Of a DNA stretch of 64,000 bases, positions 4,325 through 4,987 are shown in pieces. Position 1 is the first letter of the stretch. Each line of letters begins with the position of its first letter. The position numbers and the translations under genes were made by a program. The notes beneath the pieces are model-generated. The model ran no database searches. It was not told the DNA's origin and saw only the letters and a program-made list of their open reading frames with translations. This stretch comes from Escherichia phage 92CQ, in the sequence record PV682554.1; one strand, given 5' to 3'.

Positions 4325-4987
4325 TTATTTAATATTCAATTTTGCACAAAGACGTTGTACCGCTTTGGCATCGAACAAACTCCCACGAATAGTTCTCTTT
4401 CCTGATTCATTCAGATGCTTTGCAATCGTCATATATGGCGTTTTACAAGCCCTGTATGCAACTAAAGAATCTTTTAAAGAAAGCGCAAACTCTTTTGAGC
4501 GTTTTGCTTCTTCCGTTTTCGTATAATCTGTTCTTTTGTATTTAGGGTTTGCTGCACCAAGAAGCGTTCCCTTCGCTTTTGCTACCTTAAGGCTCTTCTT
4601 AACACGATCAGATATTGCACGAGCCTCTTCTTCTGCCAGAACTGCTAAAATATTTATTATCATATTTTCAGCGGAGGGCATCGTTGCTATTCGTACATTA
4701 ATCATCTCTAACAAGGTTGCAACAGAAGCTGTGTTACGTCCAAGACGGTCAACCTTAGCAACAACAAGTGTAGCACCTGTTTCTTTACAAAGATTAACAG
4801 CTTTTACAAGCTCTCTACGTTGCTTCCAATCGCCTTTACCAGAATAAAACTCTGCAAAGCTACCTACAATAGTATAATTTTCTTGTGAATCCAGGAAGCG
4901 TTGGATATCTGCTTCCTGTGATTCTATACCATACTGGTTGCCTTGTTGTTTCTTCTTAGAAAGTCGATGATACAGTACAAACTTCAT
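4325..4987 (-). CDS. serine recombinase family protein (resolvase/invertase-like)
   Basis: N-terminal YHRLSKKKQ (catalytic Ser context) and VVAKVDRLGRN motif typical of small serine recombinases. Confidence 0.6.
   Translation of the reverse strand: MKFVLYHRLSKKKQQGNQYGIESQEADIQRFLDSQENYTIVGSFAEFYSGKGDWKQRRELVKAVNLCKETGATLVVAKVDRLGRNTASVATLLEMINVRIATMPSAENMIINILAVLAEEEARAISDRVKKSLKVAKAKGTLLGAANPKYKRTDYTKTEEAKRSKEFALSLKDSLVAYRACKTPYMTIAKHLNESGKRTIRGSLFDAKAVQRLCAKLNIK

Follow-up and report, generated by a model that had tools for sequence, protein, structure and literature searches.

The window analysed here is a 64,000-nucleotide stretch of the genome of Escherichia phage 92CQ (PV682554.1), and the gene of interest is an open reading frame (ORF) on its minus strand at 4325–4987 that is predicted to encode a 220-amino-acid small serine recombinase. 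The original prediction, made from the letters of the sequence, had placed here an ORF with the motifs MKFVLYHRLSKKKQ and VVAKVDRLGRN and had read it as a resolvase/invertase-like enzyme in an otherwise lytic-looking gene array. The ORF was located exactly there, with an ATG start and its stop codon at 4325–4327, and its neighbours are genes of a virulent phage. The window belongs to the genus Justusliebigvirus (phi92-like myoviruses, Stephanstirmvirinae), and megablast returned ~55 GenBank/RefSeq records that are 98–99% identical to it. The recombinase shares its full sequence (100% identity) with phi92 gp053 (YP_009012384.1) and with the gene products of at least 40 of the phage records listed, which variously call it “DNA invertase”, “recombinase family protein”, “putative resolvase” or “hypothetical protein”. 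Phi92 gp053 and its Justusliebigvirus orthologues share an identical protein, neighbours, strand, promoter and ribosome-binding site, and represent the same gene, which we call gp053 below.

As an annotation gp053 is already known. A literature search that did not cover the phi92 genome paper (PMC3457257) found no functional study of the protein, and several genome papers on phi92-like phages state that lysogeny or recombinase genes are absent. What is new here is the evidence for purifying selection, a putative promoter of its own, the likeness of its C-terminal domain, the failure of the invertase reading, the lack of a copy in Escherichia coli genomes and the existence of plasmid relatives in rep/par settings. 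The matter has practical weight because phi92-like phages are under development for therapy, and automated screens flag genes named recombinase, invertase or integrase as a risk of lysogeny or gene transfer.

The recombinase gene, its domains and its putative promoter

A hidden Markov model search, the check proposed for the resolvase/invertase N-terminus, matched the protein to Pfam Resolvase (PF00239) with E = 8.4e-22 and a score of 78.3 bits, well above the cutoff of 23.3, over residues 4–141 and 143 of the 145 model positions. In an alignment with gamma-delta resolvase, Hin and Gin, the invariant catalytic columns are occupied by Y6, R8, S10, D80, R81, G83, R84, E121 and R128. The catalytic serine, whose absence would have spoken against the assignment, is S10, with its codon at 4958–4960 (minus strand). 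Both marks of the serine recombinase class are thus found, a Resolvase fold above threshold and a Y-x-R-x-S motif with the accompanying Arg/Asp/Glu set. The best PHROG family is PHROG 125 “DNA invertase” (1.3e-31), followed by PHROG 95 “integrase” (1.5e-25). Searches of the PDB with the protein returned the Sin, Tn3 and gamma-delta resolvases along with Hin/Gin, and a search with the family profile ranked the Tn3, Sin and gamma-delta resolvases first, at 60–65 bits, with Gin/Hin weaker. The N-terminal MerR-like helix-turn-helix of IS607-type transposases was not found in the protein, in which the catalytic domain begins at residue 2 and is followed by the DNA-binding-type domain at the C-terminus. 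To judge from its sequence, the product of 4325–4987 is a genuine, intact small serine recombinase that, with its catalytic residues in place, is probably catalytically competent. It is an ordinary-looking member of a known enzyme class.

An AlphaFold2 (AF2) model of the protein (mean predicted local distance difference test score 87.7) shows the resolvase alpha/beta catalytic fold, with strands at residues 2–9, 39–47, 73–76 and 98–100 and a 31-residue E-helix at 108–138. Together with the Pfam match and the catalytic columns, the model delimits a Resolvase catalytic domain plus long E-helix at residues 1–141 (4565–4987, minus strand). A disordered linker at ~150–157 leads into a compact C-terminal domain of four helices (159–170, 172–180, 185–194 and 207–216). 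The top Foldseek matches of the model were Bxb1 integrase, the Sin catalytic domain and the N-terminal plus recombinase domains of phiC31; the probability was 1.00 against the catalytic domains of Sin, Bxb1, phiC31 and TP901-1, and the longest alignments were those with Bxb1 and phiC31.

The four-helix domain (residues ~158–220; 4328–4516, minus strand) is of DNA-binding type according to the AF2 model, a family motif and Pfam matches in relatives. Pfam detected no helix-turn-helix family in the whole protein at E ≤ 1, the HTH_7 domain typical of invertases included, and the isolated C-terminus gave no Pfam match at all, with nothing at E ≤ 10. A motif of the form IAxxLNxxGxxTxxGxxFxxxxVxRL is kept across an alignment of 29 family members, 21 of which match PF07508 “Recombinase” at E ≤ 1 (best 3.3e-07), with the window protein itself below detection. 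Longer alignments run in the same direction: residues 1–213 align to positions 88–307 of the 651 in the PHROG 95 (integrase) model, and residues 4–212 to positions 10–225 of the 542 in NCBIfam CcrB. The PF07508 matches and these two alignments lead us to liken the module to the start of the recombinase domain of large integrases. The C-terminal ~60 residues appear to resemble the first helix-turn-helix of the “Recombinase” domain of large serine recombinases rather than the HTH_7 of Hin and gamma-delta resolvase.

Translation would start from an AGGAGG ribosome-binding site at 4993–4998 (minus strand), 5 nt before the ATG, which was read from the sequence and is also annotated in phi92. The 57-bp gap upstream of the gene further holds a putative sigma-70-type promoter, TTGACT-17-CATACT, at 5013–5041 (minus strand). 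The consensus scan that found it performs by itself at chance level (40 sites against 39.5 expected in shuffled sequence). However, a TTGAC(A/T/C) −35 box with a well-spaced −10 box precedes the homologue by 30–65 nt in each of the eight lineages examined, namely the window, Klebsiella phage FKP3, ESCO13, Vibrio phage VPMCC14, Shewanella phage 1/40 and three metagenomic phage contigs. In ESCO13 the candidate promoter falls within the preceding gene. It is this consensus match, conserved across lineages, that suggests a sigma-70-type promoter belonging to the recombinase gene itself.

Two palindromes in the same gap, CTGTNACAG and TTAACGTTAA, were considered as crossover sites and rejected because they overlap this promoter. 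They are not the conserved part of the gap; the −35 and −10 boxes are what is kept in the eight lineages, and the palindromic sequence is therefore read as promoter. A 20-mer across the −10 box has no second copy within the window. Upstream of the homologues in VPMCC14 (L006 3943–3988) and Shewanella phage 1/40 (L007 3949–3983), inverted repeats of 9–11 bp bracket the −10 box, with a T-run after the repeat in VPMCC14. An upstream terminator that runs into the promoter is one possible reading of these repeats, and an operator is another.

Conservation and the tests of inversion and integration

The gene is present in ~55 of the ~55 Justusliebigvirus records detected, and homologues occur in Phapecoctavirus and in Klebsiella, Vibrio and Shewanella phages. 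Those with at least 45% identity are carried by large phage genomes and phage-like contigs. The homologues always lie within co-directional arrays of early or nucleotide-metabolism genes, among neighbours such as PhoH, dTDP-sugar enzymes, a phosphatase, NAMPT, rIIB, DNA ligase, a DprA-like protein and UvrD helicase. The position of the gene is not fixed between Justusliebigvirus and Phapecoctavirus: in ESCO13, a Phapecoctavirus, the homologue lies ~17 kb from the PhoH/HslV block that flanks the gene in phi92, with a spacer of ~10 bp on either side. Four records labelled as Campylobacter phages A150, A145, C3 and A110a (MG065639.1, MG065645.1, MG065656.1 and MG065689.1) are 98.5% identical to Justusliebigvirus over the stretches tested and appear to be phi92-like phages filed under the wrong host; the A145 record, at any rate, carries the UNVERIFIED tag.

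Among 29 aligned homologues of 30–88% identity, Q24, E46, G50, R57, D80, R81, L82, R84, E121, R128 and G140 are invariant, and Y6, R8 and S10 are kept in at least 90%. The window gene differs from the phi92 gene by nine synonymous and no non-synonymous substitutions. Against FKP3 (78% amino acid identity) the ratio of non-synonymous to synonymous change (dN/dS, omega) is ~0.07, a value obtained with dS saturated. These comparisons indicate that the gene is under strong purifying selection. What makes the gene interesting is that such selection preserves a site-specific recombinase with an intact catalytic centre in obligately virulent phages that infect several bacterial genera.

An invertase of the Hin/Gin/Cin type, flipping a phage segment such as the tail-fibre or host-range genes, is the function that the RefSeq name “DNA invertase” implies, and host-range switching by inversion was also among the roles first proposed for this enzyme. 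Hin, Gin, Cin and Pin share with gp053 the serine recombinase core and a length of ~190–220 amino acids, Gin and Cin are likewise phage-borne, and the weak sequence likeness to Gin and Hin, the name of the best PHROG family and the several tail fibres and spikes of phi92-like phages all fit such a role. However, the C-terminal domain of gp053 differs from theirs in having no detectable HTH_7, and no invertible segment or hix/gix-like inverted repeats were found in the searches and comparisons that follow. No inverted-repeat pairs above chance length and no dyads with arms of at least 12 bp were found in the window, where the repeat and dyad searches yielded only terminator hairpins and low-complexity stretches rich in A and T. 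When a provisional splice of the window with EC_OE_11 (OQ108497.1), standing in for the whole genome, was blasted against itself, terminator hairpins were likewise all that emerged; the splice is approximate because EC_OE_11 is 98.9% identical to the window with indels.

If an invertase were active, independent isolates would be expected to carry its segment in both orientations. We therefore compared successive 20–25-kb pieces with the phage collection by megablast, taking 1–25000, 24001–45000 and 44001–64000 from the window, and 62000–84000 (the remaining tail-fibre/tailspike cluster) and 83001–105000 from EC_OE_11. Over 1–105 kb, including the whole tail-fibre cluster, the ~55 close relatives are collinear, each matching in a single place on the same strand. 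Where a record matched in two places, its own end lay inside the query in all cases except J-01 and cardinal. The second place in J-01 was tried as an inversion and proved to be a same-strand insertion of 2.1 kb, and the match in cardinal is inferred from its coordinates to straddle the record end. In the tail-fibre cluster the relatives differ by replaced cassettes and indels, and no inversion is seen.

The repeat-rich early region at about 105–145 kb was compared locally in four further genomes, and held exactly one minus-strand block. This block of 0.87 kb (EC_OE_11 111752–112622, or L003 6752–7622) lies outside the window, where the leftward and rightward early operons diverge, ~35–40 kb from the recombinase gene on the circular map. 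As the sole inversion polymorphism found within the genus it is a point in favour of an invertase, and we examined it as a candidate substrate. No inverted repeat was found at its ends. In the phi92/A145 arrangement a single 216-amino-acid ORF runs across its right junction; in EC_OE_11 this ORF is split into a 55-amino-acid N-terminal ORF on the other strand and a 112-amino-acid C-terminal ORF. About 170 nt were lost or replaced at the inversion which, with the split ORF, means that the event was not conservative. Its orientation also tracks clade exactly, with 24 records (97–100% identity) in the EC_OE_11 orientation and ~31, including phi92, in the opposite one (92–96%). Repeat-less, non-conservative and clade-linked, the block was rejected as an invertase substrate and looks like one old illegitimate inversion. 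The surrounding stretch of EC_OE_11, at 105–127 kb, is a hyper-variable early region with many small ORFs and repeated intergenic sequences of 20–50 bp, which are probably repeated promoters. It gives several megablast places when matched to itself, and relatives differ there by many cassette indels.

A segment flanked by inverted crossover sites of ~26 bp and occurring in both orientations was thus not found in the window repeats, in the ~55 genomes over 1–105 kb or in the four compared beyond. With no inverted-repeat pairs above chance length in the window and a tail-fibre cluster collinear in ~55 relatives, inversion or host-range switching finds no support, and we regard it as highly improbable. 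“DNA invertase” is a homology label that the collinearity test contradicts; as a name for gp053 it is probably wrong, and in RefSeq it is misleading.

A function in integration and lysogeny, or descent from a transposon or other mobile element now decaying within the phage, was weighed on similar grounds. The PHROG 95 match is to an integrase family, and the gp053 family has its C-terminal motif in common with the large serine integrases. The likeness to large serine recombinases such as Bxb1, phiC31, TP901-1 and CcrA/B extends to a post-serine loop of the “SxxxQxxxGxSxxxQ” type and to the IAxxLNxxG...V motif, which matches the start of PF07508. In addition, a distant relative in Humitalea (30% identity) lies beside a T7 gp14-like gene, in an apparent prophage context. 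Yet gp053 ends at residue 220, against 440–650 amino acids in those enzymes, and is missing the zinc-ribbon/coiled-coil domain as well as the greater part of the recombinase domain, so that the integrase-style large C-terminal domain is absent, as had been predicted. No transposase or terminal repeats flank the gene.

Resident copies were also sought. Among 5,426 complete genomes of E. coli, none had a nucleotide match to the gene at roughly 65–70% identity or more. A scan by sequence pattern, derived from 14 closer sequences and run on one genome for each of 185,579 bacterial and archaeal species, picked up no more than 11 loci; their identity did not exceed 41%, none of them was enterobacterial and none a close relative. 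Neither a complete C-terminal region of >300 amino acids nor prophage copies, the marks of large serine recombinases, were found in the protein and in these genome sets, respectively. The decaying remnant, which had been offered as another possible origin, is ruled out by the 9:0 ratio of synonymous to non-synonymous differences from phi92, the omega of ~0.07 against FKP3 and the invariant catalytic residues; the presence of the gene in all ~55 Justusliebigvirus records and the lack of an E. coli copy also speak against it. An integrative or mobile-element role consequently retains hardly any probability in our assessment. The collinear relatives, the lack of detected prophage copies and the missing large-integrase domains together suggest that gp053 is neither an integrase nor a host-range switch.

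A proposed action on replicating phage DNA and its alternatives

With inversion and integration excluded as far as sequence comparison goes, an analogy with plasmids leads us to favour a resolvase-type reaction. Our best overall explanation, to which we assign a probability of roughly 0.4, is that gp053 is a competent small serine recombinase of virulent phages that performs such a reaction on the phage’s own replicating chromosome. We hypothesize that gp053 would be made early by host RNA polymerase and that its dimer would bind a short dyad site. Conservative cut-and-rotate recombination could then take place between two copies of this site on replicating phage DNA. The outcome would be the conversion of multimers to monomers, or the circularisation of a terminally redundant genome in the manner of Cre-loxP, and would involve neither inversion of a gene segment nor integration. 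Cre-loxP in phage P1 is a precedent for circularising a terminally redundant genome. Of the three roles proposed at the outset, inversion and mobile-element remnant have fallen away, and resolution of replication multimers is possible and, by analogy, the one we favour.

The analogy comes from plasmid “recombinase family proteins”, among them those of Phaeobacter pP18_i, a 19-kb Spirosoma plasmid and Hymenobacter, which have a gp053-like length and architecture at ~35% identity. The 12 best plasmid matches listed have 98–100% coverage, ~35% identity and both domains in the arrangement seen in gp053. Of the three plasmid records inspected, two have the gene in a rep/ParA maintenance backbone: a 7.3-kb Phaeobacter plasmid carries it with rep, ParA and a ribbon-helix-helix protein, and the Spirosoma plasmid with rep and a ParA-like ATPase. 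Backbones of this kind are the usual home of multimer-resolution recombinases, and the setting suggests multimer resolution as the task of the plasmid relatives. The Tn3, gamma-delta and Sin resolvases likewise share with gp053 the catalytic domain, the catalytic residues, the E-helix and a similar size, and their lead in the PDB search with the family profile favours a resolvase over an invertase. They differ in that gp053 is only ~27% identical to them, has a 10-residue insertion after Ser10 (KKKQQGNQYG) and a C-terminus that is not of the HTH_7 type, is not adjoined by a multi-subsite res, and is found in a virulent phage rather than a transposon or plasmid.

Several observations weigh against a resolvase-type reaction. 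The plasmid analogy draws on ~35% identity and gene context, and the third plasmid inspected, a 6.4-kb Synechococcus plasmid, has no annotated rep or par genes. In all, 542 plasmid records matched, mostly staphylococcal or enterococcal, and the three inspected were small plasmids. Inverted-repeat, dyad and 20-mer searches found no recombination site in the phage window. No res-like site adjoins the gene, since the 57-bp upstream gap is filled by promoter and ribosome-binding site, the downstream gap measures 9 bp and the spacers in ESCO13 are ~10 bp; a res-type site for gp053 may be distant or intragenic. Finally, a phage that packages concatemers has no obvious need for monomerisation.

The lack of a detected site in the window also bears on a different proposal, in which gp053 would act early on DNA other than the phage’s own, rearranging, excising or breaking the host chromosome, a resident prophage, a satellite or a defence island. 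A sigma-70-type promoter of its own suggests very early expression, in keeping with such a target, and the different loci occupied in Justusliebigvirus and Phapecoctavirus indicate that the gene is not tied to a nearby cis site. Against this, members of the family occur in phages that infect E. coli, Klebsiella, Vibrio, Shewanella and other hosts, and a different host site would be needed in each. We consider action on such foreign DNA unlikely.

The requirement of headful packaging for concatemers can also be turned around, such that gp053 would fuse phage circles into multimers for packaging, or would serve mainly as a DNA-binding regulator with little turnover. Record starts vary among isolates, as for permuted genomes, and lambda without general recombination can obtain packageable dimers through site-specific recombination. 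Resolvase-class serine recombinases that are unregulated, however, normally favour resolution over fusion, and the invariant catalytic residues speak against a purely regulatory role. Fusion or regulation seems to us slightly less probable still than a host target.

A broader view, which we hold tentatively and with less weight than the resolvase-type reaction, is that these proteins form a distinct clade of short serine recombinases, composed of a catalytic domain and a single recombinase-domain helix-turn-helix, confined to large virulent phages and with a job in the lytic cycle that would be new to this enzyme class. The job might consist of circularising or monomerising the incoming or replicating chromosome at a dedicated site, much as Cre does at loxP, or else of a targeted rearrangement of host or competitor DNA. 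The site of gp053, once located, would explain why the gene is retained and might provide a compact new recombinase/site pair.

Neighbouring genes and other features of the window

Directly downstream of the recombinase gene, across the 9-bp gap, lies the gene for a 67-amino-acid protein, phi92 gp052 (4112–4315, minus strand). It has homologues at the same position in FKP3 (52% identity) and in the metagenomic contig L013 (27%, E = 2e-4), and none was found there in ESCO13 or the Vibrio and Shewanella phages. Upstream, on the same strand, are the overlapping genes of two small proteins, phi92 gp054 (5045–5260), which directly precedes the recombinase gene, and gp055 (5248–5499). They belong to PHROGs 15892 and 14731, of unknown function, and are syntenic in FKP3 and L013, where the L013 recombinase is ~52% identical to gp053. 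We considered the gp055-gp054-recombinase-gp052 block as a functional module and dropped the idea. The block occurs only in phi92, FKP3 and L013, which also resemble one another in wider gene order, so that common descent would account for it equally well, and it is missing from ESCO13 and the Vibrio and Shewanella phages.

The methyltransferase that had been noted some 500 bp away corresponds to a DNA methyltransferase gene at 5492–6001 (minus strand), 505 bp upstream. Its 169-amino-acid product has an NPPF motif and matches PHROG 799 (1.7e-56), with no Pfam match. The gene accompanies the recombinase in phi92 and FKP3, and the surroundings of the ESCO13 homologue have no annotated methyltransferase.

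Three further features of the window were noted. The product of a neighbouring gene at 3528–4100 (minus strand) is named “histidyl tRNA synthetase” by RefSeq and PHROG 4806; at 190 amino acids it is far shorter than a real histidyl tRNA synthetase and has no Pfam match at E ≤ 0.01, and the name is doubtful. At 6460–7113 (minus strand) lies a gene for an HslV/proteasome-like peptidase with a weak match to Pfam Proteasome (E = 1.6e-05, residues 11–63), which is unusual in a phage and is conserved in FKP3. Lastly, a perfect 178-bp direct repeat at 36619–36796 and 36924–37101, 305 bp apart, represents a tandem duplication of tRNA-Ser(GCT), with copies at 36652–36737 and 36957–37042, inside a cluster of 16 tRNA genes at 36097–38873.

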